Below, piece by piece: positions 7,622 through 58,498 of a stretch of DNA of 64,000 nt (positions are counted from its first letter, which is position 1; each line of letters starts with the position of its first letter). The stretch is from Patescibacteria group bacterium (lineage in GTDB: Bacteria > Patescibacteriota > Patescibacteriia > UBA1558 > GWA2-36-10): NCBI GenBank assembly GCA_018819405.1, contig JAHJQF010000001.1:162097-226096 (forward strand), read 5' to 3'. The notes under the pieces are model-generated. The model ran no database searches. It was not told the origin of the DNA and saw nothing but the letters and a program-made list of their open reading frames with translations. The position numbers and the translations under genes are program-made.

Positions 7622-8563
7622 CTATTTCAAATCTTTTCTATAAAACTCAGCAGCGTCATCAGGATCTATTGGATTGATGATAAGTCCAGATCCAATCTCC
7701 ACTCCGGCCCAGACTGAACCGCGCGGTACTATTTTCATATAAAGATGTTGGTCATTGTCATTGATGACCTGATGAAAATAAAAATTATAAGGCAAATCAA
7801 GCTGACCAATTTTTATTAAAATATGTTTTAGGATTTTGGCAAATGAATTTCTCTCATCCTTTGTAAGCTCTGTGATATTGTCCCGATGAGCCAGAGGCAT
7901 AATCCAAACTTCATAATTGAACATGGAGGCATACGGGGTAAAGGCTACTACATTTTTATCTCTATAAATAAGCCGCGGCCCTTTTGATTCTTTATGTATT
8001 ACATCACAGTATACGCAGTGTCCGTGCTGAAGTTTATAAGCCTGCTGACGCTGACTTTTATCAAAAATATGTGGTGGTAAAAACTGAGTAGCAAATATCT
8101 GGCTATGAGAGTGCTGCAAACTAGCCCCAGCCACGCCACCATTATTTTTAAAAATCAAAATATATTCTATTTTTTTATCTTTGGAAATGGCTTTGGTCCT
8201 AGCCGCATAAGCTTCCAAAAGATCCGCTATCTGACTTACTGATAAATCCTCCAACTCTAGAGTATGATCAGATGTTTCTATCACTACTTCCTGATGACCG
8301 TAAGCTTTGGGGTTGTCTGTAGAGACTGCTGGATAAATATTTTTTATAATATTTATAGCCCAATCCTCTTTTCCGCCTTTGCGATATAAGCTCTTTACAT
8401 CCTTTAGATTTGACGGACAAAAAATACAACTTGCTTCCAATTTTTTCTTGTGTTCACCTGGACGGACAGTATCATGTGGTCTTTTACCACGCTTGGGAGC
8501 AATAATTACATACTTTTCTTGGATATAGTCTTTCCTTATTTCTGGTTTGGTCATTTTTGACAT
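7622..8563 (-). CDS. GalT-like hexose-1-phosphate nucleotidyltransferase (HIT superfamily; galactose-1-P uridylyltransferase or ADP-glucose phosphorylase type)
   Basis: Cys/His zinc motif 'CIFCP...HGHCVYCD' and active-site HxHxQ 'LQHSHSQIFA'. It is the last gene of the glycogen operon. Confidence 0.65.
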   Translation of the reverse strand: MSKMTKPEIRKDYIQEKYVIIAPKRGKRPHDTVRPGEHKKKLEASCIFCPSNLKDVKSLYRKGGKEDWAINIIKNIYPAVSTDNPKAYGHQEVVIETSDHTLELEDLSVSQIADLLEAYAARTKAISKDKKIEYILIFKNNGGVAGASLQHSHSQIFATQFLPPHIFDKSQRQQAYKLQHGHCVYCDVIHKESKGPRLIYRDKNVVAFTPYASMFNYEVWIMPLAHRDNITELTKDERNSFAKILKHILIKIGQLDLPYNFYFHQVINDNDQHLYMKIVPRGSVWAGVEIGSGLIINPIDPDDAAEFYRKDLK

Positions 8564-19459: not shown

Positions 19460-20230
19460 ATGAAAAAACTGCTGTTCTGCGCCATTTTGTTGGCGCTGGT
19501 GGCTGCCCTAGTCTCTGGCTGTACTACTCCCGGCAAAAAGTGGTACGGCTACGATCGCCAAAGCAAGGAATACATCCAGCTCGACAAGCAACCCTTTCAG
19601 CAGGCGGTTTACAACCTCTCCAGTTACACAATCTTCTTCACTCTGGAGGGCAAAGACGCCTGGTCTTGGACCGACCCCTACTACCAGATTGACCCTGGCT
19701 ACTCTGGATCTCTGGAAATACACCAGAGCTACACCAGCGACAAATTTCGCGCCTACTTCTGGTGCAAGGGTTGTCAGGATGTCCTGGGCACTACCGAAGA
19801 GATGATCGAGTTCGAGCTGCCCGGTCTGGCCACCATGCCGACCGATACACTGATTGTCACCGATGCCATGCTTATGGGCGATGCCCTCCAAGAGATGGCT
19901 GTCAAGAACATGACGGGTGTTGACTTGCACTACTACGACAATCGCGGCAACGACTTCGTGATAAAACATGGGCAAGCCTGGAGGCTACTGGTACTCTCCG
20001 GACCCTACAACTTCTGGGTTGAGCCTGTCATCAGACTCAAGTACGAAGCAGCCGCACCGGTAAAGCTGGGACAAGTAAGTTCCGACAAGCCGTTGATTAT
20101 TGACCGGCGACGCAATGCCTTGTGGACTGACCAGAACGGTCAACCCATTTATATCGGCGCCAAACGCATCATCGGTGCCGATGAAATTCCGCGCTTCTGG
20201 CGGGAAAGACGGCATTGGGCCGAGTACTAA
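19460..20230 (+). CDS. GC-rich (about 53% GC) lipoprotein of unknown function; compositionally foreign
   Basis: Signal peptide plus lipobox 'LVSGC'. Codon usage is biased to CTG/GGC/GCC, against roughly 32% GC in the flanks. The gene has its own promoter and terminator. Confidence 0.55.
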   Translation: MKKLLFCAILLALVAALVSGCTTPGKKWYGYDRQSKEYIQLDKQPFQQAVYNLSSYTIFFTLEGKDAWSWTDPYYQIDPGYSGSLEIHQSYTSDKFRAYFWCKGCQDVLGTTEEMIEFELPGLATMPTDTLIVTDAMLMGDALQEMAVKNMTGVDLHYYDNRGNDFVIKHGQAWRLLVLSGPYNFWVEPVIRLKYEAAAPVKLGQVSSDKPLIIDRRRNALWTDQNGQPIYIGAKRIIGADEIPRFWRERRHWAEY

Positions 20231-40070: not shown

Positions 40071-40493
40071 CTAGGAGCCACTGGTGAGCTCGACAATCTG
40101 CTGACTGTCAGCTCCGTAGCCGGTGATGACATATCCGATGTTGATGTTCCCTTGCTTGATGGGCTGGTAAAAGACCTGACCCGGACCGGGAACCTCGTCG
40201 GTCATGATCGCGTCACGCGGCTCGGTCACTTGGTTAGTGAAGGCGTTTTCCAGCAGTTGCTCAGCGGGCAGCAAATACAGGAAATAGACCACCTTCTCGG
40301 GGTAGCGACCGTCGTTTCTGACGACGTAGTCCTCGACGGCCAGCTGCACGGTGTGGCAGACGCCCTTGGTCTTGGCCTCCATGGCCCGGTTCTGCATGCT
40401 GATGAAGTTGGGGATGGCGATGGCCGCCAGGAGACCGAGGATGACCACAACGATCATCAGCTCGATGAGAGTAAAGCCCTTGCGATTGAACAT
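40071..40493 (-). CDS. Type IV pilin / pseudopilin (prepilin-peptidase-processed), GC-rich and compositionally foreign
   Basis: 'MFNRKG|FTLIELMIVVVILGLLAAIAIPNF' is a class III signal with Glu+5. GC is about 58%. It has an AGGAGG SD, and its promoter TTGACA-N17-TAAGAT is at 40601-40630. Confidence 0.75.
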   Translation of the reverse strand: MFNRKGFTLIELMIVVVILGLLAAIAIPNFISMQNRAMEAKTKGVCHTVQLAVEDYVVRNDGRYPEKVVYFLYLLPAEQLLENAFTNQVTEPRDAIMTDEVPGPGQVFYQPIKQGNINIGYVITGYGADSQQIVELTSGS

Positions 40494-40662: not shown

Positions 40663-41949
40663 TTATTTCAACAATTCTTTAAAAACTCGTCTATCATCCC
40701 AAGGAATTTTTTGACCATTTGCCACACATATAAATTGTTCTGAACCTTTACCAGTAATAAGTATTAGGTCGTTAACTTGAGCCAATTCTATTGATTTTTG
40801 AATAGCCTCACGTCTATCTTCTACTTTAAACAAATCTTTATCCAGTGTTTTGCCAACCTCAATAGCTCCACGGGCAACATTGTTTATAATTTCTATTGGA
40901 TCATCATCATATGGGTCTTCGTTTGTTACAATTACTATATCAGCGTTCTCTCCCGCCATTTTACCAAGTACTGGTTGACGAGCTTTATCTCTTCCTCCAC
41001 CGCATGATCCCAAGATATGAATCAATCTATTTTTTTTTATTTTTTTCAAAGTCTGATAAAGTTGGCCTAAACCCTCTGGCTCAGGAGCATAATCAACTAA
41101 TACTTTAAAATCCTGTCCCTCATCAATCCATTCCTGACGACCTGGTACATTTTTTAATTTTGTTTGTACTAAATTTTTGAGATCAAAACCTAACTCTGCT
41201 ATTGCTACCATAGCTGACAAAACATTATAAACATTAAATTTAGCAATAAATTTTGTATCTATCCTATTACCATGCACAGAAAATGACACTCCGTTTTCCA
41301 AATCAATATCCTGTGCCTGATAATCAGATTGTTTATCAATAGAGTAAGTGACAAATTTATCAACTTTTATTTTTTTGAGCCTCTCTGTTTCCATATCATC
41401 ATTATTGGACACAACTATTTTGATTATTTTCTCACCATCTATTATTTTTATCTTGCTAGTTGATAGGTGTTTAAAAAGTTTTTCTTTATACATTCGATAA
41501 TTTTCAAAACTACCATGAGCCTCGATATGCTCGGGTGTCAGATTGGTAAAAATAACTGTATCATAATTTATCCCCGCATGACGAAATTGTTCTACACCTT
41601 GAGACGATGTTTCAATCACCGCATATTTACAACCAGCTTTGACCATATCAGATAAAAGTCTTTGTGTTTGCATGCGCCCAAGCATTGTCATTTTTTTGTC
41701 ATTGAGCCATTCTTTTTTAGCGACTTTAAAATTAGCAGTTGAAGCCAAACCAACTTTTTGATTTTGGGACTGCAAAAACTGAGCTACAAAATTAACAGTC
41801 GCTGTCTTACCATTGGTGCCGGTCACGCCTATCACAATCAATTTGTCACTAGGGTTTCCAAAAACAAAAGCCGCCAACTTGGCCAAAGTGTGATGATAAG
41901 CCAAGATGATTTTTTTGCCCAATATTTTTTTTATTAACTTTTTAAGCAT
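40663..41949 (-). CDS. Mur ligase family protein (MurE-like, lacking the N-terminal domain)
   Basis: 'VIGVTGTNGKTAT' P-loop and the C-terminal Mur ligase domain; 428 aa. Confidence 0.55.
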   Translation of the reverse strand: MLKKLIKKILGKKIILAYHHTLAKLAAFVFGNPSDKLIVIGVTGTNGKTATVNFVAQFLQSQNQKVGLASTANFKVAKKEWLNDKKMTMLGRMQTQRLLSDMVKAGCKYAVIETSSQGVEQFRHAGINYDTVIFTNLTPEHIEAHGSFENYRMYKEKLFKHLSTSKIKIIDGEKIIKIVVSNNDDMETERLKKIKVDKFVTYSIDKQSDYQAQDIDLENGVSFSVHGNRIDTKFIAKFNVYNVLSAMVAIAELGFDLKNLVQTKLKNVPGRQEWIDEGQDFKVLVDYAPEPEGLGQLYQTLKKIKKNRLIHILGSCGGGRDKARQPVLGKMAGENADIVIVTNEDPYDDDPIEIINNVARGAIEVGKTLDKDLFKVEDRREAIQKSIELAQVNDLILITGKGSEQFICVANGQKIPWDDRRVFKELLK

Positions 41950-41962
41950 CCTAATATGGTTG

Positions 41963-42679
41963 CTAATTATTATTTAAATAATCTTCTACTCTCTGGACAT
42001 CTTCCGGCTTGCCAAAATCAAGCCAGACACCTTTGAGGTCAATTACTTTTACCTTGCCCTGTTTGGCTAAAAGATTTATGACATCTGTCAGCTCATATTC
42101 ACCGCGAGGAGAAATATCTATCTTATCTAAATAATCAAAAACTTCTGGAGTAAATTTGTATAATCCAGTATTAATCAAATTACCAACTGGCTGAGCAGGT
42201 TTTTCTACTATTTGTTTCAAAAAACTATTTTTATCCACTGCTAGCACACCATAATTTTCTGGGTGCTGGTGGGCTAAGCCAGCTATATAATTGTAATCAT
42301 CATCAATATTTAATCTTTTCAAATCTTCAACCGAATATAGATTATCTCCGTAGACTGCCAAAAAACTTTGACCTTTCAAAATATCTTTGACACACTCCAG
42401 AGGACAAGCTGTGCCATACTTCTCTTCACCGAGTATTTCAAATTGATTAACTAGCTGGATTTTAAATTCTGGATATTTGGTCAAAAATTCTTCCATAAAT
42501 TCTTTTTTGTAACCAACGACCATTATAATTTCTTCAAAACCAGCGGCTTTTAGATTTGATAAAAGATAATAAAGAAAGGGACGACCATTAGCCTCTATGA
42601 GATGTTTTGGTTTGTCTTTGGACAACTCTAGCATCCTAGTACCGCGTCCAGCAGCTGAAATAAGTACTTTTCTAATCAT
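41963..42679 (-). CDS. Sugar-phosphate nucleotidyltransferase (NTP_transferase family)
   Basis: 'VLISAAGRGTRMLELSKDKPKHL' is the G-x-G-T-R-x motif; 238 aa. Confidence 0.65.
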   Translation of the reverse strand: MIRKVLISAAGRGTRMLELSKDKPKHLIEANGRPFLYYLLSNLKAAGFEEIIMVVGYKKEFMEEFLTKYPEFKIQLVNQFEILGEEKYGTACPLECVKDILKGQSFLAVYGDNLYSVEDLKRLNIDDDYNYIAGLAHQHPENYGVLAVDKNSFLKQIVEKPAQPVGNLINTGLYKFTPEVFDYLDKIDISPRGEYELTDVINLLAKQGKVKVIDLKGVWLDFGKPEDVQRVEDYLNNN

Positions 42680-42700
42680 ATTTCAATAAATTTAATATAA

Positions 42701-43705
42701 CTATTTTCTTAAAATAATTTTGGCAAGTTTATATATGCTATACCAGCTATTGTTATAAATCAAGTTGTAGGCCCCTGGTGAATATACCACCTGACCGCCA
42801 AAACCTTTTTTAAAACGACTAATACCAACCCATTTTGGTTTGGATCCGTCTTCTGGGGCAATACCCCAAAAATCATAAATCTCCGCGCCCAGAGTTTTGG
42901 CTTTTTTTATACTCTCCCACTGCAAAAGATGTGGTGCCATATAATTTCTGAATTCATAATCTGAAGCACCATGCAAATAGGTCATAGCTTGACCAAAATA
43001 AATCAAAATATTGGCCGCTACCGGCTGACCGTTTACTGTGGCTATAGCTAGATGAGCAACTTTATGATCAAGTAAGGTTTTAAAAAGTAAACGATAATAA
43101 TCATCGTCATGAATTTTTATTTCTTTTCTATCGGCTGTTTTTCTATTCAACGCCAAAAAAATTTCTATATCTTTTTCGTCTTGAGAAAAAAATACTGACA
43201 CTCCTTTTTTCTTGGCCAAAGCAATATTGTATCTGGTCTTAGTGTGCATATTGGCTAGTAATTTTTTTTCTTCATCTTTGATATCAAGAATCCAAGTATC
43301 ACGCGGTTGGACATCTGGACACTTTTGTAGTTCTGGCAAAATCAAATTACTATTTTCTGGTTCTAACTTAAAAAATATTTCTTCCTTTTTTTTGGTTTCA
43401 ATAGTAATCTCTCGTGCTTGTGACAAAATAAATCTTAAAACATCCTTTCTTTTTTCTTCGCTTATACCCTGACTAATGACCGGTCCCTTGGGACTATAAA
43501 GATAAGTCCTGTCAAAAGGTAATTTGTTTTCATACAAAAGACAAAGACCTATTAATTTATCCTCTTCTAAGACCGCTGCTTGCCAATATCTTTTGCCCTG
43601 TCTAGATAAAAAATTTCTCCAAACACTAGACTGTAAAAAATTACCAGAGACAAATCTGGTAGTTAAAAAATCATCATAATTTTCTTTATTACAAACTAAC
43701 TTCAT
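42701..43705 (-). CDS. FemAB-family peptidoglycan interpeptide-bridge aminoacyltransferase
   Basis: PF02388-like, with C-terminal 'YDFWGIAPEDGSKPKWVGISRFKKGFGG'. Confidence 0.6.
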   Translation of the reverse strand: MKLVCNKENYDDFLTTRFVSGNFLQSSVWRNFLSRQGKRYWQAAVLEEDKLIGLCLLYENKLPFDRTYLYSPKGPVISQGISEEKRKDVLRFILSQAREITIETKKKEEIFFKLEPENSNLILPELQKCPDVQPRDTWILDIKDEEKKLLANMHTKTRYNIALAKKKGVSVFFSQDEKDIEIFLALNRKTADRKEIKIHDDDYYRLLFKTLLDHKVAHLAIATVNGQPVAANILIYFGQAMTYLHGASDYEFRNYMAPHLLQWESIKKAKTLGAEIYDFWGIAPEDGSKPKWVGISRFKKGFGGQVVYSPGAYNLIYNNSWYSIYKLAKIILRK

Positions 43706-44268
43706 TTGTTTATATATTTAAGAGCTTCTTTGATACGCGTGGCCAGATCATCACTCTTGGGCAAAGTCTTTAATACTTCTTGAGCCTCACTTTGTTTGTA
43801 GCCCAGTGACATCAAAGCTTCGGCTACTTGCTTGTCGCTATCACTGGTCATAGATGGTTGGCTCAAGTCCACAATAAATTTTTCTTTGAGGTCTACCACT
43901 AGTCTCTCAGCAGTCTTCTTACCAATACCAGACACTTTTTGTAGCATAGTAGAATCTCCACTAGTAATAGCCCGCTTGAGATCATCAAGTGAGGCTAGAG
44001 CCAAGACATTTAAAGCACTCTTTGGTCCGACGCCTGACACAGAAATAAGTTTTTTGAAAAAATCCAACTCCTCTAAACTGGAAAAACCATAAAGATCAAA
44101 AGCATCCTCTTTGATATAAGAATGAATAAAAAAATCCACCTCATCCTGCTCACGGCATTTTTCTAGAGTTTTGGTTGGCAAAAAAACATCATAACCTATC
44201 CCACCAACCAAAACAATGGCGGATCTAGTAGCTTTTTTGATTATCTTACCTTTTAAATAGGCTATCAT
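43702..44268 (-). CDS. ruvA: Holliday junction branch-migration protein RuvA
   Basis: 'MIAYLKGKI...IVLVGGIGYDVFLP' and a helix-hairpin-helix middle domain. Confidence 0.85.
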   Translation of the reverse strand: MIAYLKGKIIKKATRSAIVLVGGIGYDVFLPTKTLEKCREQDEVDFFIHSYIKEDAFDLYGFSSLEELDFFKKLISVSGVGPKSALNVLALASLDDLKRAITSGDSTMLQKVSGIGKKTAERLVVDLKEKFIVDLSQPSMTSDSDKQVAEALMSLGYKQSEAQEVLKTLPKSDDLATRIKEALKYINK

Positions 44269-44405
44269 AATAATCTTATTCTACCAGACTTAGCCCTCTT
44301 TTTCAATTGACAAAAAATATCTTATATATTAAATTATTTTTGCAACTTGCTTTACTACTATACTTCTGCCCAGTGAGTCTGTACCCTCACAGAAAGGAAG
44401 GATCC

Positions 44406-45185
44406 ATGATCCACTATGAACTACGCAACCCTCTACTTGGTCGCTGGTTTGTAACCACTCTTATCCTCGCCCTAGTCACCACCCTCATCCCAACACTGCA
44501 TTTCCAACCAACAAGTAGCTATTCGCTGATTCTGCCCCAGATAACCCCCGACTGGCTCATCTGGCCACTCAATCTGGCGCTCTTTGTCGCCACGCTGGTC
44601 TGGCTGATCACCAACCGCTTCAGCGTCTGGATTGCCGGCGCCTACAACCACTGGCTCTACCATCTGCTCTGGCTGGCTATGGCCAAGGTTGTTTGGCTGC
44701 TCTTTGGCCCGGTGCTGTCGCTTAATACCCTGATGATCACTAGTTTTGTGGTCGTATTCACTCTCATCACCTACCTAGCTATCAGGAAAATCGGCCAAGA
44801 CATCTACTGGCACTTGCCAACTGTCTTTGTCGTCTACCTGATGGCTCTGCGCCTGATGCATGATGTCAGTCTACTTGGCTGGGGCAAGCCGCTCACTCTG
44901 CTAAGCAAGCAGACCATCCTGCTTTGGACTTGCTTGAAGGTAGTCAGCCTCCCCATCCTCGGTCTCCTGGCCTTGGTCTACATTGCCAGCGGCCTTTACT
45001 TGTTCGGGCAAAAAATCAAAAACAGCTGGGACAACAATCTGGATGAAAGCGAGGAAATAATCGGCCTTTTCATGTTGCTGATTGGCATCATGATTTTCCT
45101 AATCATCTTTGAACTCCCTTACCAAATCAAAGAACACCTCATCAAGCCTACTTGGCATTGGCTCTTTCCCGACTACTCCTACTAG
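44406..45185 (+). CDS. GC-rich (about 52% GC) polytopic membrane protein, unknown function; compositionally foreign. The start is reassigned to 44406; the track ORF at 44307 begins inside the promoter.
   Basis: SD 'aaaggaagg' 6 nt before ATG 44406. Six to eight TM helices. The promoter TTGACA is at 44307-44312, and the terminator at 45198-45245. Confidence 0.5.
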   Translation: MIHYELRNPLLGRWFVTTLILALVTTLIPTLHFQPTSSYSLILPQITPDWLIWPLNLALFVATLVWLITNRFSVWIAGAYNHWLYHLLWLAMAKVVWLLFGPVLSLNTLMITSFVVVFTLITYLAIRKIGQDIYWHLPTVFVVYLMALRLMHDVSLLGWGKPLTLLSKQTILLWTCLKVVSLPILGLLALVYIASGLYLFGQKIKNSWDNNLDESEEIIGLFMLLIGIMIFLIIFELPYQIKEHLIKPTWHWLFPDYSY

Positions 45186-45197
45186 GAGACTGGTCTG

Positions 45198-45245
45198 CCC
45201 CCGCCCGATTCTGTAAAACAGAATCGGGCGGGGGAATTTTTTATT
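45198..45245 (+). terminator. Intrinsic terminator 'cccccgcccgattctg-taaaa-cagaatcgggcggggg aatttttt', a near-duplicate of the terminator at 20234-20280
   Basis: Perfect 16-bp stem plus T tract. The stem ends and the 'gggggaatttttt' tail are identical to the 20234 terminator. Confidence 0.7.
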
Positions 45246-45476
45246 TTAAAAATCAAAATTTGCCTAAACCAAAAAACGCCCCATCGCGCAAGGGAGTTTT
45301 TCGGCTGTCCTATGTGACAGATACCTAGCAAAGACCCTCTCGACTAGGGCATCTGAAGGTATTGATATTATAGCAAATTTAAAAAAGCTTGAAAAGACCC
45401 CTGTGAATAAAATAGCTATTTATCCGCAAAAAATGGCTAAAACTAGAAAAATTTTAAAAGTTTTATATATACTCAA

Positions 45477-45505
45477 TTGACAGCCGAAAAAGAATAATAT
45501 AAAAT
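45477..45505 (+). promoter_or_regulatory. Promoter TTGACA-N17-TAAAAT driving the GC-rich ncRNA candidate
   Basis: TTGACA at 45477-45482 and TAAAAT at 45500-45505. The predicted TSS of about 45512 coincides with the start of the GC-rich block. Confidence 0.5.
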
Positions 45506-45511
45506 CTTTGT

Positions 45512-45805
45512 GGGGCTGCGTGGCAAACGCCACACGCTACGCGATCAGCATCCATGCTGGGCAAGTCGGTTTAGGTGCACCATCAACGCGTCCTAAGAGT
45601 GCTTCTTCCAGCTGATAATGGAAGCCGTTGATAACCGACACTGCGTAGCGCAGCCCCACCAACTCGGGCAAAAGGCAAGGGAGATAAACCTCCTAACGTT
45701 TCAAACCGCGTCAGCGGTGGGAGGCGACCTCGCCAATTTGCCCGCGGAGGGGAGAGTGTGCCGGACACTAATAGTCCGACAAACCTCCCCTCCCTCTTTT
45801 TTTAT
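45512..45805 (+). ncRNA. Candidate structured ncRNA of about 295 nt (about 58% GC) bounded by a promoter and an intrinsic terminator; class unknown
   Basis: Nested long-range helices (512-518/651-657, 535-542/643-650, 563-569/632-638, 580-586/625-631) and a terminal 'ggaggggag...ctcccctcc'+T7 terminator at 45748-45805. There is no plausible ORF; the track ORFs on both strands look spurious. Confidence 0.4.
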
Positions 45806-45860
45806 AAAAATTTTAAACCATTTACCATAATGATGCAGGGTTATTTTTTTTATTTAATAC

Positions 45861-45901
45861 AAAAAAGCCCCCTTGTCTGGTTATGAACCAGACAAGGGGG
45901 C
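45861..45901 (-). terminator. Intrinsic terminator of the small GC-rich membrane-protein gene ('gcccccttgtctggtt / aaccagacaagggggc' with an A/T tract)
   Basis: Seen in sequence: a 16-bp stem and a T run on the minus strand. Confidence 0.6.
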
Positions 45902-45925
45902 GCGAAGTTCTCAAGCCGAAATCGG

Positions 45926-46204
45926 CTACTCGTCAAAGGTCTCTTCGGATTCGTAATTCCGCGCCTGCAGACTACGAACCCTTTTGTAGATAGCCCGACC
46001 GGGCCAGCTCAGTAGACTCACCAACCCAAGACCAATGGGTATGAGCAGGATGTAGGTGACGTAGAAAAACGCCACAACATAAGCAGCCCACTGAGCAGCT
46101 GCCTGAAAACTCGGCAAAAGACCGAGCCCCCACAGACCTACACAGGCCAACAGACAGACACCGTAAAAAAGCACCAAACTAACGACAAAGAGCACAAAGC
46201 GCAT
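45926..46204 (-). CDS. GC-rich small membrane protein with 3 TM helices (92 aa). The ATG at 46204 is preferred over the track's GTG at 46210.
   Basis: AGGAGG SD 9 nt upstream of ATG 46204. The promoter TTGACA-N17-TATCTT (minus) is at 46254-46282. The gene is hydrophobic and about 60% GC. Confidence 0.45.
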   Translation of the reverse strand: MRFVLFVVSLVLFYGVCLLACVGLWGLGLLPSFQAAAQWAAYVVAFFYVTYILLIPIGLGLVSLLSWPGRAIYKRVRSLQARNYESEETFDE

Positions 46205-46285
46205 TACCACCTACCTCCTAAAAAGAGTGAATTGTTCGTACGTTTAACGCTGTAAGATAACATTATTAAAATATTTTGTCAATTC

Positions 46286-46314
46286 AAAAAACCCCGCTTC
46301 GGCGGGGCTTTTAT
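46286..46314. terminator. Bidirectional terminator 'ccccgc-ttcg-gcgggg' (UUCG tetraloop) flanked by A and T runs
   Basis: Seen in sequence, downstream of the minus-strand gene 46318-46686. Confidence 0.55.
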
Positions 46315-46317
46315 CTT

Positions 46318-46686
46318 TTATAAATAACTAAAGTCTTTTCTTCTATCAATCAACTCATAAGCCTTCTTCATTTCTTCGGGTGTGTTTATATAAATAATTT
46401 TGTATTTTCCAGAGGTGGTATTTTTTTCATGATCATGGAAAATTTCCAAAATATGTATCAATCCCCAATACAACCATTTACCGTTTATATTCTGCACTAA
46501 AAAATTTCTAACAGGGGGTCTATGATATATTCTAATATCCTCTTTATCTTTAAAATCAAATATTTTTCCTTCAAAATCCTCGGCCTTGATCTTATTTTTC
46601 AGGTGTTCTTGATAATTCAGTTCCTTTGGAAAACCCTGTTCTGAAGTTATTTGTAAGGTATCATTTATTTTTATAAAACCACCCAT
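46318..46686 (-). CDS. hypothetical protein (122 aa, AT-rich, native)
   Basis: An ORF with no assignable motif. It lies between dnaN and the GC-rich island. Confidence 0.4.
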   Translation of the reverse strand: MGGFIKINDTLQITSEQGFPKELNYQEHLKNKIKAEDFEGKIFDFKDKEDIRIYHRPPVRNFLVQNINGKWLYWGLIHILEIFHDHEKNTTSGKYKIIYINTPEEMKKAYELIDRRKDFSYL

Positions 46687-46690
46687 AAAT

Positions 46691-47791
46691 TTATTGCCTA
46701 ATAGGCATTACCAAATAAATATATTTGTCATTACCAACTGGCTGAAGTAGCCCTGGTGATGAATTATTGTTTATCTTCATATTTACTTCACTGGTACCCA
46801 GCTGATTAAGGCCATCTAGTAAATAGCGGTAGTTAAAGACAATATCATTTTCTTCTCCTTTTATTTCTGCTGAGACATTGGCAATTGAAGTACCAGTATT
46901 TGATGAAGCAGTAGCGATAATTATTTTTTGAGACTTGGCATCAAAACTAAGTCTTATATCATTAATACCTTGTTTGCAAAACAGAGCCACTGATTTTATA
47001 GCTGGGACAAGCTTACTAATATTGCACTTGGCTTCAGTTTTGAATTCAGCTGGAATAATTTGACTATAATCTGGGTATTTACCATCTATTACACGCGATA
47101 TGAGCTCTACTCCATCAAGCTCAAACATTATCTGATTTTCATTAAAAAATATTTTGAGTTTTTTGTCCTGCTGGTCATTTAGAATCCTAGCTAATTCTTG
47201 TAAAGTTTTGAGAGGAATTATTAGGTTTTTGTTTTCCCCGTTTTCTACTGGGATTTTCTTTTCAGCCAAACGGTAGCTATCAGTAGCTGCTAGAGTAAGT
47301 TCATTTTTTTGAAAGTTGAAGTTTACAGCATTTATTTCAATCCTTGAGACATCTAGTGACGCGGCTAGTAGCACTTGAGAAAGACTTTTTTTCAAGTCAG
47401 CGATTGAGATTTCTACCATGTTATGTTTTTCTATTTCTGGTATCAGAGGAAAGTCTTCAGCAAGCATGCCTTTGATAGAGGTTTCTTGGTTGGCACTTTT
47501 TATTTCTAGGTTATCTCCGTCCAAGTTGATTTCAATATTTTCTCTGGGAAGAAAAGAAACAAAGTTGTGAATCAATTTAGCATCTACTGTAAACTCGCCT
47601 GACTTTTCTATTTTTCCTCTAATTGATGCTTTGATACCAATTTCCAAATCAGTAGTGATCAAAGTGAGATCGTTTTTTTCTGCTTTCAATAATACATTAT
47701 TCAAAATTGGCAAGTTGGAACTTTTGTTGGCAATGTTTGATACCAAAGATAATCCTTTATTCAAATTTTCCTGAGTGCAAACAATTTTCAT
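46691..47791 (-). CDS. dnaN: DNA polymerase III beta sliding clamp
   Basis: Three-domain clamp of 366 aa, immediately downstream of dnaA. Confidence 0.93.
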   Translation of the reverse strand: MKIVCTQENLNKGLSLVSNIANKSSNLPILNNVLLKAEKNDLTLITTDLEIGIKASIRGKIEKSGEFTVDAKLIHNFVSFLPRENIEINLDGDNLEIKSANQETSIKGMLAEDFPLIPEIEKHNMVEISIADLKKSLSQVLLAASLDVSRIEINAVNFNFQKNELTLAATDSYRLAEKKIPVENGENKNLIIPLKTLQELARILNDQQDKKLKIFFNENQIMFELDGVELISRVIDGKYPDYSQIIPAEFKTEAKCNISKLVPAIKSVALFCKQGINDIRLSFDAKSQKIIIATASSNTGTSIANVSAEIKGEENDIVFNYRYLLDGLNQLGTSEVNMKINNNSSPGLLQPVGNDKYIYLVMPIRQ

Positions 47792-48088
47792 ATTATTATT
47801 GTTTAATTATTTATATATAAAATTTAGTAGTAGTTATAGGCACGGTGGATATGTTTATAAGTGGAGAAAAATTTTGGTAAAGCCTAGGAAAATTTGTTTT
47901 TATTTTGGATTTTAGCTGGTGGACAATCAGTTCACAAAAATGTTGATAAGAGGTTTTTTTGTGAATAAGTTTTGAGACTTTATTTTGATCGGTGGATAAG
48001 CTGGTGTTTATACACAGTTAGTTATAAAACTTTACACAAGGTTATAAAAAACTTATAAACAATTTATTCACGCAATTTTTGTGAATCT
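47792..48088. promoter_or_regulatory. oriC-type region: a cluster of DnaA-box-like 9-mers between dnaA and dnaN, plus an A/T-rich unwinding tract
   Basis: 'ggtggataa' at 47991-47999, 'tgtgaataa' at 47961-47969, 'tgttgataa' at 47941-47949, 'ggtggacaa' at 47918-47926, 'ttattcacg' at 48065-48073 and 'tgtgaatct' at 48081-48089. Two perfect tandem 'tgtggataa' boxes lie upstream of dnaA at 49573-49591. Confidence 0.6.
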
Positions 48089-49471
48089 TTAATTGCGTTC
48101 ATAGATTTTTGTCTTTAAAACTAAGATGTCATTTTTAATTCTATCATCAGATTCAATTAAGGTGGTTACTTTGACACAGGCGTGCATGGCAGTGGTGTGA
48201 TCTCGTCCGCCTATTTCTTGCCCGATGTTTGGGTAAGAGGCTTTAAGCTCTTCTCTCATCAAAAACATAGCAATTTGTCGGGGCACTACCAATTCTTTTT
48301 TGCGGCTGGCGCCCAAGAGATTTTCCATGCTAATGTCGTAAAATTCTGAAATGACTGTCAAAAGTCTTTTGGGGGTCAGTCCCGCCTTTCTAGGATTGGC
48401 AGCAATACCTCCCAAAATGGATTTTACGCTCTCTAAACTAGGAGTGGTGTTGTTGAGTTGATGAAAAGCAATAATTCTATTTAGAGCGCCTTCTAACTCG
48501 CGGATATTTTCTTGAATAGTTTCAGCAATATATTGAACTATCTTTGGGTCAAGATTATATTTTTTTTCTTGGGCCTTAATTTCTAAAATAGCCACTCTAG
48601 TTTCTAGATCAGGAGAAGAAATATCGGCAATCATCCCCCACTCAAAACGGGAAATCAACCTGTTCTCTACTTCTTGGATAGCTTTTGGTGGTCTATCAGA
48701 AGATATAACTATTTGTTTATTGTTTTGGTGAAGGGCATTGAAAGTATGGAAAAATTCCTCTTGAGTTTGTTCTTTTCCGGCTATAAACTGGATATCATCA
48801 ATCAAAAGCACGTCAATATTTCTATACATTTGCTTAAATTTGTCAGTTTGTCCCGATTTTATAGCAAAAATAAAGTCATTGGTAAATTTTTCGCTATTAA
48901 TATAAAGGACCCTTTTACTAGGATCTTTGGCTAATATATAATTACCAACAGCTTGGACTAGGTGAGTTTTTCCCAAACCTACACCACCATATATAAATAA
49001 AGGATTGTAGATTTCACCAGGTTTTTGAGCAGCCGCATGAGCAGCCGCTTGGGCCAACTCATTGCCTGGTCCAACAACAAAGGTTTCAAACTTATAGTGA
49101 GGATTTAGGCCAAATTTACTGACACTTTGGCCATTAGAAGGATTGCTGGAGTTATGCACATAGGAGGTTTTTTCTTTATTAATATTTTCAACATTTTCGC
49201 TAATGTCAGCCATCTTTTCCTTTGTTATGACCCTGTAGATAACCTGTAGATTATTTTTTGATAACACATTTTCCAGAGCTGATATAATTTTGTCGTGGTA
49301 CTTCTTTTCCAACCATACTTTGGTAAAGGCATTGGGCACTCCAACCACCACTTGGTCTGATTCAACACTGGCAATAAAGGTATTTTTAAACCAAGTAGTA
49401 AAGTTTGCTTTACTGATTAAAAGTTCTAATTCACCCAGGGTATTTTCCCAGATTTTATCGTAATTTTCCAT
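48089..49471 (-). CDS. dnaA: Chromosomal replication initiator DnaA
   Basis: AAA+ 'GGVGLGKTHL' and the C-terminal DnaA-box-binding domain; 460 aa. Confidence 0.95.
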   Translation of the reverse strand: MENYDKIWENTLGELELLISKANFTTWFKNTFIASVESDQVVVGVPNAFTKVWLEKKYHDKIISALENVLSKNNLQVIYRVITKEKMADISENVENINKEKTSYVHNSSNPSNGQSVSKFGLNPHYKFETFVVGPGNELAQAAAHAAAQKPGEIYNPLFIYGGVGLGKTHLVQAVGNYILAKDPSKRVLYINSEKFTNDFIFAIKSGQTDKFKQMYRNIDVLLIDDIQFIAGKEQTQEEFFHTFNALHQNNKQIVISSDRPPKAIQEVENRLISRFEWGMIADISSPDLETRVAILEIKAQEKKYNLDPKIVQYIAETIQENIRELEGALNRIIAFHQLNNTTPSLESVKSILGGIAANPRKAGLTPKRLLTVISEFYDISMENLLGASRKKELVVPRQIAMFLMREELKASYPNIGQEIGGRDHTTAMHACVKVTTLIESDDRIKNDILVLKTKIYERN

Positions 49472-49572
49472 ATTTTTAGCTTTGTTTTAGCCCGAAAACT
49501 TAGTCTATATTACTATAGCACAAATAAAACTTTACCAAAATACAGACTTTAGTTGAAAAAATGTGAACAGCT

Positions 49573-49591
49573 TGTGGATAATTGTGGATAA
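49573..49591. promoter_or_regulatory. Two perfect tandem DnaA boxes ('tgtggataa' twice, TTATCCACA on the complement) upstream of dnaA
   Basis: Seen in sequence, in a 10-bp register. This is the dnaA autoregulation/oriC flank. Confidence 0.65.
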
Positions 49592-49679
49592 CTTTCAAGA
49601 CTCTGTTAGTCTTGATAAATAGGGTGGAATATGTTATTGTTCAGACGTTATAATTATTAAAGATAGCTAGGTATTTTAT

Positions 49680-49817
49680 ATGACCAAAAGAACCTATCAG
49701 CCAAAAACCAGAAAAAGAGCCAAGACTCATGGTTTTCGTGCCCGCATGTCTAGCAAAAGCGGTCGCCAAGTATTGTCTAGCCGCAGAAAAAAAGGCAGAA
49801 AAAGCCTGGCTGTTTAA
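49680..49817 (+). CDS. rpmH: 50S ribosomal protein L34 (not in the ORF track because it is under 60 aa)
   Basis: Translates to '[45 protein letters not shown]', the canonical L34. It lies just upstream of rnpA. Confidence 0.88.
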
Positions 49818-49841
49818 TTTACCTAATATTAGGCAAAAACT

Positions 49842-50222
49842 ATGTTGCCTAAAATTTTTAGACTTCATCAAGATAAGGAAATAAAAGACTTGGTTAAGAA
49901 TGGCCAAAGCTTTTTTTTGCCGCAACTAGTGATTAAGTATAAAAAAAATCAAGAGGGGCCTAGTCGTTTTGCTTTTGTGGTTTCTACTAAGGTTGATAAG
50001 CGGGCAGTAATCAGAAATAGATTGCAAAGACAAATGCGTGAAATTGTCCGGATAGCGCTACCAAAGCTTAAGACAGGGTATGTTGTGCTAATAATAGCCA
50101 AAAAATCTGCCTTGGAGTTGGATTTTAGCACTTTGGGTCGGCAACTAGACTTTGCTTTTAAAAAAATAAGCCTTTATAATCAAGGTCAAAATGATAAAAA
50201 AACTAGTTTTAAAACTAATTAG
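49842..50222 (+). CDS. rnpA: Ribonuclease P protein component
   Basis: 'FAFVVSTKVDKRAVIRNRLQRQMRE' is the RnpA RNR motif region. Confidence 0.85.
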   Translation: MLPKIFRLHQDKEIKDLVKNGQSFFLPQLVIKYKKNQEGPSRFAFVVSTKVDKRAVIRNRLQRQMREIVRIALPKLKTGYVVLIIAKKSALELDFSTLGRQLDFAFKKISLYNQGQNDKKTSFKTN

Positions 50223-50427
50223 GCTTTATCAAAAGACTTTATCTCCGGACACGGGCTGGTTTAAGGTGTTTTATCCTCATGGTTATTGCCGATTTTACCC
50301 GCATTGTAGCGAATATGGCTATCAGGCTATAGATAAATATGGACTTTTAAAAGGTGGATCAAAAGCTGTTTGGCGGGTTATAAGATGCAATCCCTTATCA
50401 AGCGGTGGCCATGATCCAGTAAAATAA
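50191..50427 (+). CDS. yidD: Membrane protein insertion efficiency factor YidD
   Basis: 'LIRLYQKTLSP...CRFYPHCSEYGYQAI...YGLLKGG' is the YidD signature. Confidence 0.8.
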   Translation: MIKKLVLKLIRLYQKTLSPDTGWFKVFYPHGYCRFYPHCSEYGYQAIDKYGLLKGGSKAVWRVIRCNPLSSGGHDPVK

Positions 50428-50441
50428 TTAAAATAACTTTC

Positions 50442-51185
50442 ATGTGGATTTTTAACAAATTTTTCTACGAACCAATTTTCAATCTTTTGGTTTATATATA
50501 CAATAGTATTCCTGGCCATGATTTGGGTCTGGCAATTATTATTTTGACTTTGATCATCAGACTGCTTCTTTATATCCCTTCCAAAAAATCTATCAAAGCT
50601 CAAAAAGAATTGGCCACCTTACAACCGGAGATAGAAGAGCTCAAAGAAAAATATAAAGCGGACAAAGAAAAGATGGGTCCGGAGCTGATGGCACTTTACA
50701 AAAAAAGAGGAGTCAATCCCCTTTCGTCTTGTCTGCCAATGGTCATTCAGTTGCCATTTCTTTTTGCCATCTATAGAGTTTTCTTCAATGGCCTGACTGA
50801 TGAGCACGCCACAGATGTCTTGTATTCTTTTGTTACTAACCCCGGTGTACTCAATCCTTTAGCTTTTGGATTTTTTAATCTAGCAGAAAAAAGTATTTTG
50901 CTGGCAGTGTTGGCTGGTTTGGCTCAGTTTTGGCAATCTAAAATGATGATGGCCAAAAAAAGACCAGGCAGCAGCTCGGTCATGGCTGGTATGAGCGGAC
51001 AGATGTTGTATATATTTCCTGTGATTACAATTTTTATTGGTTCTAGTTTTCCAGCTGGTTTGACATTTTATTGGTTACTGACAACTATATTTTCTATTGT
51101 TCAACAATACATTGTTTTGGGCACTCGTAAAGCTAAAACTAGTGATGAAAAAACAGTCGAAAATACTAGTGAAAAAAAAGAATAA
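50442..51185 (+). CDS. yidC: Membrane protein insertase YidC (short Oxa1-type)
   Basis: A 247-aa protein with a conserved 'PLSSCLPMVIQLPFLFAIYRVF' TM core, in rnpA-yidD-yidC synteny. Confidence 0.8.
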   Translation: MWIFNKFFYEPIFNLLVYIYNSIPGHDLGLAIIILTLIIRLLLYIPSKKSIKAQKELATLQPEIEELKEKYKADKEKMGPELMALYKKRGVNPLSSCLPMVIQLPFLFAIYRVFFNGLTDEHATDVLYSFVTNPGVLNPLAFGFFNLAEKSILLAVLAGLAQFWQSKMMMAKKRPGSSSVMAGMSGQMLYIFPVITIFIGSSFPAGLTFYWLLTTIFSIVQQYIVLGTRKAKTSDEKTVENTSEKKE

Positions 51186-53274: not shown

Positions 53275-53349
53275 GACCCCATAGTTTAATGGATAAAACA
53301 AGAACCTCCTAAGTTCTAGATCCAGGTTCGATTCCTGGTGGGGTCACCA
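53275..53349 (+). tRNA. tRNA-Arg (anticodon CCU) with an encoded CCA
   Basis: Folded by hand: acceptor 'gacccca'/'tggggtc', D-arm 'gttt-aatggata-aaac', anticodon arm 'agaac-cuCCUaa-gttct', T-arm 'ccagg-ttcgatt-cctgg', discriminator A and CCA; 75 nt. Confidence 0.85.
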
Positions 53350-54444: not shown

Positions 54445-54576
54445 AAATAGCCGTTTCCAAGAGAAATAAAGTTAATACACAAATATTAGCCAAATTAAAT
54501 AGGCCGCTACGGAGCTATTTGGCCTCTCAGACAATAAACAAACACTTGTGAGCTACACTGGGGCGTAGCTATTTTC

Positions 54577-54605
54577 TTGACAATCCTCATAAAAAGATAT
54601 ATAAG
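54577..54605 (+). promoter_or_regulatory. Promoter TTGACA-N17-TATAAG. It is the first copy of a 25-nt direct repeat 'ctggggc.(3-4 nt).ttattttcttgaca', at 54558-54582 (phased from the TTGACA position).
   Basis: TTGACA at 54577-54582 and TATAAG at 54600-54605. The repeat copy at 55077-55100 carries the promoter of the CsoR-like gene. Confidence 0.45.
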
Positions 54606-54611
54606 AAAAGG

Positions 54612-54895
54612 ATTCTTTGAAATATCTTGGCCAATATGGCCCTAGCGTCTAGTTTGGATAAAAAGGATATCTGATTTGGCTGCTGTGGCTATAAAAGTCA
54701 AAGCCGTGAAAGCTAAAGCGTAATTTGACCTTATAGTCAGAATTTAGTTCTTTATGGTAATTTTTGAGTGAGAGAGCTAGGGTAAGGGGTTCGCGCCCAG
54801 CATCCTTTACGGAGGGTGTCCGAGGACATACTCGGAGGAACTTCTTCCCTGCTGGCCCCACTGACTTCGGTTGGTGGGGCTATTTTATTTGACCC
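54612..54895 (+). ncRNA. Candidate promoter-to-terminator transcript of about 285 nt with a GC-rich structured 3' half; class unknown
   Basis: No credible ORF. The 3' half carries a three-way junction (stem 54797-54802/54850-54855 enclosing hairpins 54819-54836 and 54837-54848). It ends at terminator 'gcccca-ctgacttcggttgg-tggggc' (54855-54880) followed by 'tattttattt'. Confidence 0.3.
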
Positions 54896-55169
54896 CATAA
54901 TCGACAGACCTCAATATCAAGTATTGGGTGAGGATAGTTTAGTTTTGAAGGGATAGTATCATATCAGGGCTGAAATAGAACAGTGGTCTGTCGCTACGGG
55001 GCGGGACGTGGTGTTTAGTTAACCTTAGACAATAAATAAGCTCCAGTGTTTGCCTGCCCGCCATAGCCGGCACGGCAGGCGGGGAACTGGGGCAGACTTA
55101 TTTTCTTGACACATTTTGGACAATATGATAGTATACCCCCATAGGGTATATAAGTATTTAGCTAAATCA

Positions 55170-58130: not shown

Positions 58131-58163
58131 GCACCCCAAGACATGGCAAGGGGTGCTTTTTTG
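58131..58163. terminator. Bidirectional intrinsic terminator 'gcacccc-(12 nt)-ggggtgc' + T6
   Basis: Seen in sequence, between gdh (+) and the GC-rich Cys-rich gene (-). Confidence 0.6.
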
Positions 58164-58184
58164 TTGCGGCGCTTGTGGTGGCGC

Positions 58185-58457
58185 CTAGTTGTTGTCCGGT
58201 TCGGGCTCGGGATCCTGGCGGGGGCGGGGATCACGGGGATCCTGCTGCGGTGGGGCAGCCTCATAGAGAGGCTCTTTCTTCGACTGGAAACATCCGCAAC
58301 TTTCGTTGCAACTTTCCTTGCCACACTGGCACCTGCTCATGGGGAGCCTCCTCGGGATTGGGTGATGAAGTCCATTAGATCCCATGATTGGAATGCCGGC
58401 GAGATCATCTCTGCCTTCGGTTTCGTACCAATCGCCGGTTCCAAAACAACCGCCCAT
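58185..58457 (-). CDS. GC-rich (about 63% GC) small Cys-rich, Pro/acidic-tailed protein (90 aa), unknown function; compositionally foreign
   Basis: AGGAGG SD 6 nt before the ATG, and a perfect TTGACA-N17-TATAAT promoter on the minus strand (58499-58527). 'CQCGKESCNESCGC' is a putative metal-binding cluster, and the tail is '...DPRDPRPRQDPEPEPDNN'. The overlapping plus-strand ORF 58143-58472 is judged spurious. Confidence 0.4.
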   Translation of the reverse strand: MGGCFGTGDWYETEGRDDLAGIPIMGSNGLHHPIPRRLPMSRCQCGKESCNESCGCFQSKKEPLYEAAPPQQDPRDPRPRQDPEPEPDNN

Positions 58458-58498
58458 AGGGCACCTCCTTAAAGATAATAGTGGTAGTCAGTTATAAG

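Follow-up and report, generated by a model that had tools for sequence, protein, structure and literature searches.

The window analysed here, a 64,000-nt stretch of contig JAHJQF010000001.1 from a Patescibacteria group bacterium, is the chromosomal origin region of a Komeilibacteria-like genome, and between its dnaN and ruvA genes lies the GC-rich RNA gene that is the subject of this study. One flank of the RNA gene consists of dnaN (46691-47791, minus strand), dnaA (48089-49471, minus strand) and then rnpA and yidC, the other of ruvA, a FemAB-family gene, a nucleotidyltransferase gene and a Mur ligase gene. The assignment as origin region follows from the minimum of the cumulative GC skew, at ~47 kb of the window, together with the dnaA and dnaN neighbours, and it places the RNA gene ~1-2 kb from the dnaA-dnaN origin region. 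An earlier note on this DNA, made from the letters alone, had described a structured RNA without an open reading frame (ORF) at this site. On the plus strand, we distinguish the following parts:

45477-45505, plus strand: sigma-70-type promoter, with TTGACA at 45477-82, a 17-nt spacer and TAAAAT at 45500-05
45512-45803, plus strand: predicted primary transcript of ~292 nt, with the 5′ end inferred within 45509-45512 and the 3′ end in the U7 run
45512-45657, plus strand: domain 1, 146 nt, a multi-branched, variable orphan module closed by GGGGCUGC/GCAGCCCC
45658-45664, plus strand: G-free linker ACCAACU, predicted single-stranded, an exterior loop between domains 1 and 2 in the minimum free energy (MFE) structure
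45665-45744, plus strand: domain 2, 80 nt, a conserved module closed by CGGGCAAA/UUUGCCCG
45746-45803, plus strand: intrinsic terminator, a 9-bp stem of GGAGGGGAG (45746-54) and CUCCCCUCC (45785-93) with a nested hairpin inside, then CUC and U7 (45797-45803)

A predicted structured RNA gene without a coding frame

Judged by these signals, the gene would be a self-contained transcription unit that runs from a consensus sigma-70-type promoter to an intrinsic terminator ~290 nt on, and we infer that it is transcribed. The TTGACA-N17-TAAAAT promoter seen in the earlier note is present, matches at 11/12 positions and is the top promoter-like site within 44000-47000. GC content is 0.58 over 45512-45745 against a window mean of ~0.36 (56-58% over the ~290-nt body), and the jump in GC that had been placed at the start of the transcript indeed coincides with the inferred 5′ end. 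A simple terminator scanner gave no call at 45746-45803, because the loop is longer than 8 nt. No ORF with a ribosome-binding site was found in the RNA region; the only longer ORFs, of 70 aa (45618-45830) and 42 aa (45758-45886), both cross the terminator. No gene on the same strand follows the terminator, as the next feature is the 3′ end of the convergent protein gene orf94 (minus strand).

The predicted fold is far more stable than expected from composition. The whole RNA has an MFE of -135.9 kcal/mol (z = -7.5), which was equalled by 0/200 dinucleotide shuffles. Without the terminator, the body still reaches z = -6.2, compared with -4.1 for its reverse complement, and each domain folds well on its own (z = -5.1 for domain 1 and -4.9 for domain 2). 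GC-rich coding controls from the window fold at z = -0.85 to -2.4, with orf94 at -4.2. All four long-range helices that the earlier note had proposed are in the MFE structure, shifted by 0-2 nt (45512-19/45650-57, 45536-43/45642-49, 45565-71/45633-39 and 45582-88/45626-32), and its second hairpin-rich domain and terminator reappear as the closed domain 2 and the stem followed by U7. Very little of the RNA is predicted to be single-stranded. The description as an ORF-less structured RNA is thus borne out by the lack of an ORF with a ribosome-binding site and by a fold far beyond that of shuffled sequences.

The RNA matches no known family

The RNA matches no known family. Across the whole 64 kb, Rfam 15 at gathering score returned only a tRNA-Arg (53275-53349). 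When the threshold was relaxed to E<=10 on a 700-nt query (45300-46000), which is the search referred to below, only meaningless hairpin matches on terminators appeared and the RNA body was unmatched. This search covered the transfer-messenger RNA (tmRNA), RNase P, signal recognition particle (SRP) and 6S families that had been suggested for checking, and Rfam searches of seven relatives' loci and of the cassettes in relatives L074 and L084 also gave nothing relevant. The resemblance to tRNA or tmRNA noted earlier is indeed superficial: ARAGORN found no tmRNA in the window and no tRNA besides the tRNA-Arg; there was no tmRNA-clan match, the third pair is G:C in place of the G3:U70 of tmRNA, and a GGUUCGAAUCC-type T-arm and a tag frame are both lacking; nor was there a tRNA covariance model (CM) signal, a T-arm or a D-arm.

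The other housekeeping families fared no better. Bacterial RNase P RNA measures ~330-400 nt and has a conserved P4 core; RF00010 and RF00011 did not match, and the RNA, ~292 nt including its terminator, is not conserved in relatives. SRP RNA, which is conserved across species, is recognised by its helix 8 with a GNRA tetraloop and by symmetric and asymmetric loops that do not vary; no SRP-clan match was found, and relatives carry unrelated sequence at the locus. 6S RNA is an extended rod of ~180-200 nt with a large central bubble, single-copy in a lineage; again there was no match, and we see two closed multi-branched domains and 0-3 unrelated units per genome at the locus. A riboswitch or other cis-regulatory leader would lie ahead of its target gene on one strand and control read-through by a terminator or anti-terminator; this is not indicated either, as there is no downstream gene on the same strand and no riboswitch family match. 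For a type I toxin-antitoxin pair, the RNA does not overlap orf94, and its predicted duplex with the orf94 5′ region has z = -0.46. OLE, ROOL, GOLLD, HEARO/omega RNA and raiA, families associated with oapA, with prophage or tRNA arrays or with IscB/TnpB, were without a match at gathering score or E<=10, Y RNA gave no Rfam match, and we found nothing relevant in the literature on structured non-coding RNAs (ncRNAs) of Patescibacteria, also known as the candidate phyla radiation (CPR).

A variable slot between dnaN and a conserved small RNA

We compared the site with DnaN-anchored loci from GTDB genomes named Candidatus Komeilibacteria, Parcubacteria or Patescibacteria (L numbers denote loci of relatives); 17 further loci came from a metagenome scan with the pattern of the small RNA (sRNA) 3′ half described below, and others from exact-protein look-ups of close DnaN relatives. 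In 54 DnaN-anchored related loci, nhmmer and blastn detected no counterpart of the window RNA, either at the orthologous site or within +/-10 kb. A blastn 'distant' search of phage genomes left it unmatched. In IMG/VR, the pattern GGGGCTGCG-N-CGCAGCCCCACCA gave a single chance match in a high-GC repetitive coding region, and neither a 21-nt stretch of domain 2 nor the sRNA pattern gave matches.

The distance from dnaN to ruvA varies between 5 nt and 6.7 kb in relatives. When all of these gaps were compared with one another, a conserved element emerged at 45244-45400 (minus strand), which corresponds to a second RNA gene:

45271-45395, minus strand: conserved sRNA gene of ~90-100 nt, divergent from the window RNA, with promoter TTTTCA-17-TATAAT (45395-45367) and its own terminator

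Its 3′ half, AUAGGACAG(A)CCGGAAAACACUCUUGCGCGAUUGGGGUGUUUUUUG, is nearly invariant across 25 distinct sequences from Komeilibacteria-like genomes, the hairpins of its 5′ part covary, and it contains several GGA motifs. Rfam at E<=10 (45180-45480) gave no match for it. This near-invariant, unannotated sRNA of ~100 nt marks the slot and could serve to retrieve the locus from metagenomes.

Between dnaN and the sRNA promoter, many relatives carry one to three units per genome, on the strand opposite to both. All of them start with an exact TTGACA-N17-TAnnnT promoter and end in an intrinsic terminator, and the GC-rich body of 130-640 nt in between lacks an ORF and is predicted to fold strongly. We found units of this kind in L001, L004, L005, L006, L007, L032, L059, L060, L063, L064, L066, L068, L074, L084 and L086. 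The exact promoter precedes 19/19 slot cassettes compared, and GGRGGGG...CCCCYCC terminators like that of the window RNA recur in the L001, L005a and L086 cassettes. The same promoter can also drive protein genes: in L076 an 85-aa small secreted or membrane protein, and in L009 an RNA-ligase-like gene followed by six paralogous genes of 150-190 aa. The slot is empty in L078, L081, L079 and L083, and in many relatives dnaN abuts ruvA or the sRNA directly, with no RNA unit.

The window RNA shares the position and orientation of these units (45477-45803, plus strand, with dnaN and the sRNA both on the minus strand) as well as their promoter, type of body and terminator. At the level of homology, its domain 2 and terminator are homologous to one unit of L074, and domain 1 is undetected in the A-type, B-type and other cassettes described below. 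BLAST between cassette bodies of different groups returned no similarity. We therefore speak of one class because of position, orientation, promoter, terminator and architecture, and not because of shown ancestry. The earlier note had considered a novel ncRNA belonging to a foreign island; the novel ncRNA stands, but the single foreign island gives way to a conserved slot, from dnaN to the conserved sRNA gene, whose content turns over.

The whole dnaN-ruvA interval (44269-46690 in the window; the gaps of L001-L091) is an accessory-gene hotspot. A ferredoxin and peptidase U32 pair is common in relatives' gaps and absent from the window, and other cargo includes a family of 190-280-aa membrane proteins and, in L022, a 271-aa hypothetical protein. 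The ORF lists of the dnaN-ruvA gaps examined contained neither an integrase nor any other mobility gene.

The gene appears to be a mosaic

The closest relative found, L074, has a DnaN 89% identical to that of the window and carries two tandem units in its slot. Unit B (8152-8254, minus strand) is 88% identical to the window RNA over 103 nt. Common to both are the ACCA linker (ACCACAU in L074), domain 2 and the terminator stem with its U-run; the hairpin inside the terminator stem is replaced in unit B, and 5′ of the linker unit B has ~330 nt of unrelated structured sequence. Judged from this comparison, the window RNA gene is a mosaic in which linker, domain 2 and terminator stem are shared with L074 and domain 1 is a different module.

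The domain 2 consensus of the two sequences has 26 shared pairs, and 10/10 differences (eight substitutions and two 1-nt indels) fall in unpaired columns, a placement with a hypergeometric P of ~1.4e-5 that is to be read with the circularity of a structure derived from the same two sequences. Because of the two 1-nt indels, there is no conserved coding frame. The MFE structure of domain 2 from the window alone, with hairpins GGGAG/CUCCU and CGUUUC/GAGGCG, is broken by the L074 substitutions and was discarded in favour of the two-sequence consensus. A CM of the domain 2 module (R1) strongly recovered only the window and L074, with weak matches (E 0.025-0.3) only at 3′ ends in L084, L063 and L032.

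Domain 1 has so far remained an orphan. BLAST and nhmmer against relatives' loci found no homolog, and neither did a single-sequence CM (R2). A CM of the B-type core (R3), built from four other genomes with the window excluded, scored its own members at 117-126 bits and found nothing in the window; a hidden Markov model (HMM) of the A-type units (L074A and L086-1) found nothing in domain 1. The only feature that domain 1 shares with A-type units is the pair of 7-nt closing-helix strands (GGGCUGC/GCAGCCC). Two candidate relationships were rejected, the first of them as unproven. A global alignment of domain 1 with L074 unit A gave z = 4.7, which was unsupported by MAFFT/alifold, by R2, by the A-type HMM and by local alignment (z = 0.9 and 0.0), and three short blocks matched by eye to the B-type core were not backed by R3.

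Structure and turnover in sister cassettes

In the sister cassettes, predicted structure is preserved by compensatory change. The consensus of L032, L063 and L066 comprises 82 pairs, with 92.7% of cells paired as compared to <=51% when partners are slid by 1-3 columns, and it contains 13 compensatory pairs against 1-4 in slid controls and 4.5 +/- 1.7 in shuffles; these values come from three sequences and from a structure derived from them. In L007/L059, L074A/L086-1 and the B-type set, interiors have been replaced, and what is conserved are the terminal helices, the terminators and some apical elements (z = 14 for the conserved ends of L074A/L086-1). The linkers that come after closed domains are short, free of G and rich in C/A: ACCAACU, ACCACAUC, ACCAAUC, CCCAACCAUC and UCCCCACCC. 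ACCA directly after the closing helix occurs in L074B, L007 and L059, with near-variants in L004, L001 and L074A, and other cassettes have UCAUAUC or CUAAAACCAC at the linker position instead.

Three further features were observed in these loci. A leader motif, GUUC(U/C)(A/U)U..., is found 10-25 nt past the -10 element, ahead of the first closing helix, in L001, L004, L032, L063, L066, L060, L062, L064, L068 and L074B, and is absent from the window RNA and L074A. Downstream of the large cassette, a second RNA-like unit that is smaller (~130-150 nt) and has a promoter and terminator to itself is conserved in L005 (~4786-4910, minus strand), L060, L064 and L084 (5480-5640, minus strand), with shared blocks that include GGUGGCUAGACC and UCUCCCUCCAAWCCCCC. 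Its block GGUCUAGCCACC is also found inside a 220-280-aa membrane-protein gene of L003/L073, from which part of the smaller unit may derive. Lastly, large ORF-less GC-rich transcripts of ~430-640 nt are predicted in L060/L005 (unit b), L064 and L084 (5660-6100, minus strand); they share the blocks CUAGCUCUCUAG and CCGAGCGUARUCGGAG and the 5′ leader CGCGUUCAUC/CGUUCCAUUC, and this family is a candidate large structured RNA.

Proposed role and alternative explanations

With moderate confidence, we propose that the locus is a stand-alone gene for a stable, highly structured ncRNA, one of a class of variable RNA cassettes that has not been described before and is housed in a conserved slot downstream of dnaN, by oriC, in Komeilibacteria-like Patescibacteria. 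We infer that the RNA is accessory and not housekeeping. Homologous recombination might exchange the cassettes, with the conserved flanks (dnaN and the sRNA gene) and conserved helix ends as its sites. The RNA itself may act in trans as a folded particle, for example as a protein-binding scaffold or decoy, in which domain 2 and the terminator would form a common handle and domain 1 the variable part that confers specificity; we would not expect it to work through an encoded protein, through antisense pairing to the genes beside it or as a leader that regulates in cis.

Several points weigh against this proposal. Domain 1, being without a homolog, could be recently acquired or neutral. L074 is the only true homolog found for any part of the window RNA, and the two-sequence support for the domain 2 structure is partly circular. 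The cassette subfamilies are grouped into one class by position and architecture. The z = -4.2 of orf94, a coding control, suggests that GC-rich DNA is somewhat self-complementary here in general. Transcript ends and abundance are read from sequence signals, and the scaffold or decoy mechanism is an argument by exclusion.

A more far-reaching version, possible but doubtful to us, is that the slot is the RNA-level equivalent of a variable accessory locus, with a pool of structured RNA modules (closed domains bounded by conserved helix ends and C/A-rich 'ACCA'-type linkers) that would be shuffled and exchanged between Komeilibacteria populations under diversifying selection. The 3′ handles would then dock a common partner and the hypervariable 5′ domains would set specificity, for example in conflicts with phage, host or neighbours. 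If true, this would be a new kind of modular, fast-evolving RNA system and not a one-off orphan sRNA.

Alternatively, the locus might be non-functional, either what decay has left of a GC-rich cassette that came in by horizontal transfer, for example a gene that once encoded a small membrane protein, or foreign DNA that is neutral and has retained its promoter and terminator. This would fit the slot promoters that drive small protein genes in L076 and L009, the similar neighbouring orf94 cassette, the fast turnover and the orphan state of domain 1, and GC-rich coding DNA such as orf94 also folds well. Yet the z-score of the RNA body lies beyond all coding controls, folding is stronger for the sense than for the antisense strand, the differences between domain 2 and its L074 counterpart all avoid paired positions, and sister cassettes hold their structure via compensatory changes. 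Moreover, ORF-less structured cassettes with consensus promoter and terminator intact are present in at least 12 genomes, which is unexpected for decay in streamlined genomes of ~1 Mb, and we consider this explanation unlikely.

Decay aside, the RNA could be a tRNA-like element. Cleavage by RNase P and trimming at the 3′ side would then yield a stable domain 1 RNA with a CCA end, and perhaps domain 2 as a piece of its own. Known substrates of RNase P include hairpins with a 3′ NCCA, such as the 4.5S RNA precursor, the C4 RNA of phages P1/P7 and the CI RNA of P4. The GGGGCUGC/GCAGCCCC helix followed by ACCA does look like an acceptor stem that ends in a discriminator base and CCA, the tRNA-Arg gene of the window encodes ...GGGGUC-A-CCA, the ACCA and its near-variants recur in the cassettes listed above, and several sister cassettes carry a 5′ leader of 10-25 nt before the closing helix. 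On the other hand, T-arm, D-arm, tRNA or tmRNA CM and ARAGORN signals are all lacking; if the GU upstream of the helix joins in, pairing can reach the 'AC' of ACCA, which may therefore not be single-stranded; and the independent occurrences of ACCA come to only ~2-3, as window/L074B and L007/L059 are homologous pairs, with UCAUAUC or CUAAAACCAC in other cassettes. Overall, processing of this kind seems quite unlikely.

If the RNA were a regulator that acts by base pairing, as antisense or sponge to the sRNA beside it or to the adjacent membrane-protein genes (for example as a type I toxin-antitoxin-like pair with orf94), the arrangement of the genes would be suitable: the conserved sRNA is its divergent neighbour, a gene for a small hydrophobic protein converges on it, and a variable 5′ part with a conserved 3′ terminator module recalls Hfq-type sRNAs. 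However, RNAduplex energies with the neighbouring sRNA in seven genomes (z = -0.5 to +0.7) were no better than those of shuffles, and those with the 5′ regions of orf94, orf292, orf122, ruvA and the pilin-like gene ranged from z = -0.5 to +1.8; RNAduplex ignores intramolecular structure, and these values cover the neighbours alone as targets. As the RNA also does not overlap orf94 and offers very little single-stranded sequence, we regard such a regulator as very unlikely.

The earlier note had also raised a divergent housekeeping RNA; this would be a 6S, SRP, RNase P RNA or tmRNA that the Rfam models miss in a reduced CPR genome. In its favour, such RNAs can be atypical in reduced Patescibacteria genomes, the 64-kb window revealed no further housekeeping RNA, promoter and fold are strong and stable, and the 5′ GGGGCUG and 3′ CAGCCCC-ACCA resemble the terminal helix of tmRNA or of a 4.5S-type RNA. 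Against it stand the family searches and ARAGORN, the absence from the orthologous site and +/-10 kb in 54 related species, and a length and two-domain form that suit neither RNase P RNA (~292 nt is too short) nor a single rod with a central bubble. Relatives with 70-89% identical DnaN carry unrelated sequences, in 0-3 slot copies, and some have only a protein gene or nothing; the RNA is therefore not a conserved housekeeping gene at this locus, and the suggestion is largely refuted and highly improbable. Equally improbable is a function in the act of transcription or in the DNA, such as insulating convergent dnaN transcription or modulating supercoiling by oriC with the RNA sequence irrelevant: the origin region is ~1-2 kb away and promoter and terminator are always kept while content is replaceable, but this leaves the GC-rich, highly structured bodies and preserved pairs unexplained, and in many relatives dnaN abuts ruvA or the sRNA without such a unit.

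Relation to known systems

Searches for GC-rich intergenic regions (GC-IGR approach) in AT-rich genomes have uncovered orphan structured ncRNAs (PMC6429828, PMC11109978). Like orphans of the raiA, OLE, ROOL and GOLLD type, whose functions are at most partly known, the window RNA is stand-alone, GC-rich and structured, lies in an AT-rich genome, stands out by the very signature on which the GC-IGR approach relies and has a function that cannot be read from its context. However, OLE, ROOL and GOLLD are far larger, and whereas these RNAs and raiA are conserved in sequence and structure across many species, the window RNA is a mosaic replaced between close relatives. With Hfq-type sRNAs, which join a variable seed to a conserved terminator module, it has in common the conserved 3′ module and its own promoter and terminator, but their seed is accessible and its variable part is a 146-nt closed GC-rich domain. 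Y RNAs and YrlA, with a conserved closing stem and a variable module, resemble it in the conserved terminal helices; in contrast to them, it has no tRNA-like T-arm or D-arm and no Rfam match, and no Ro/Rsr gene was found. From general knowledge, its 5′ GGGG.../...CCCC-ACCA is similar to RNase P-processed hairpins (4.5S precursor, tmRNA, C4 and CI), although ~140 nt follow its ACCA and no family model matches. Finally, the dnaN slot resembles accessory hotspots (capsule, O-antigen and defence islands, and islands by tRNA or tmRNA genes) in its conserved flanks and variable mosaic content, but those carry proteins, whereas many of its cargo units are ORF-less structured RNA genes. What appears to be new here is a stand-alone structured ncRNA as a mosaic, strain-variable cassette in a conserved socket.

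Patescibacteria make up a large share of bacterial diversity and have genomes of ~1 Mb, and to our knowledge almost none of their ncRNAs has been characterized. Here, a streamlined genome devotes a strong promoter and ~300 bp by the replication origin to an ORF-less folded RNA, and its relatives keep the 'socket' of promoter, terminator and flanks while exchanging the RNA body. If functional, the RNA would offer an accessible case of structured RNAs evolving by domain replacement and a candidate player in symbiont conflicts or physiology; if not, it would be a warning that promoter, terminator and strong fold together do not prove function.

Neighbouring genes and other GC-rich regions

The GC-rich membrane-protein cassettes that the earlier note had seen beside the RNA are real genes, and one of them, orf94, has its own promoter, ribosome-binding site and terminator:

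45867-46282, minus strand: orf94 cassette, a convergent GC-rich neighbour encoding a 92-94-aa hydrophobic protein, with promoter 46282-46254, AGGAGG ribosome-binding site and terminator 45901-45867

The orf94, orf122 and orf292 proteins gave no informative match in Pfam, NCBIfam, PADLOC or PHROGs. Exact-protein look-up returned no record for orf94 and only the identical contig L055 for the DnaN of the window, and no IscB, TnpB or reverse transcriptase domain was present among ten neighbouring ORFs scanned (40663-51185). The gene orf122 (46318-46686, minus strand) lies directly downstream of dnaN; the sole homolog in the 54 related loci is that of L027 (68% identity), which lies elsewhere, ~7.6 kb upstream of dnaN. 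For orf292 (plus strand), relatives have unannotated genes of 270-320 aa at its position, beside ruvA, which by eye look like fast-evolving positional counterparts; tblastn of orf292 against relatives' loci at 1e-5 gave no match. Between the convergent orf292 and sRNA genes, a perfect 17-bp GC-rich hairpin at 45198-45234, flanked by an A-run and a T-run, probably serves both as a bidirectional terminator.

A second long GC-rich intergenic region spans 54445-55115 (671 nt, up to 60% GC per 100 nt). It had no Rfam match and no similarity in relatives' loci. It contains a TTGACA promoter-like site (~54577), terminator-like hairpins, for example GGCCCCACUGACUUCGGUUGGUGGGGCU with a U-run (~54847-54885), and a repeated ...CTGGGGC..TTATTTTCTTGACA element (~54550-54583 and ~55078-55111). 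Other GC-rich islands of the window, at 40071-40493 (minus strand), 19460-20230 and 58143-58472, are protein-coding, and GC-richness therefore marks several fast-evolving surface-type genes and not RNAs alone. By direct reading, the island at 40071-40493 appears to encode a type IV prepilin (N-terminus MFNRKGFTLIELMIVVVILGLLAAIAIPNF...), and its GC-rich terminator is in the style of the slot cassettes.

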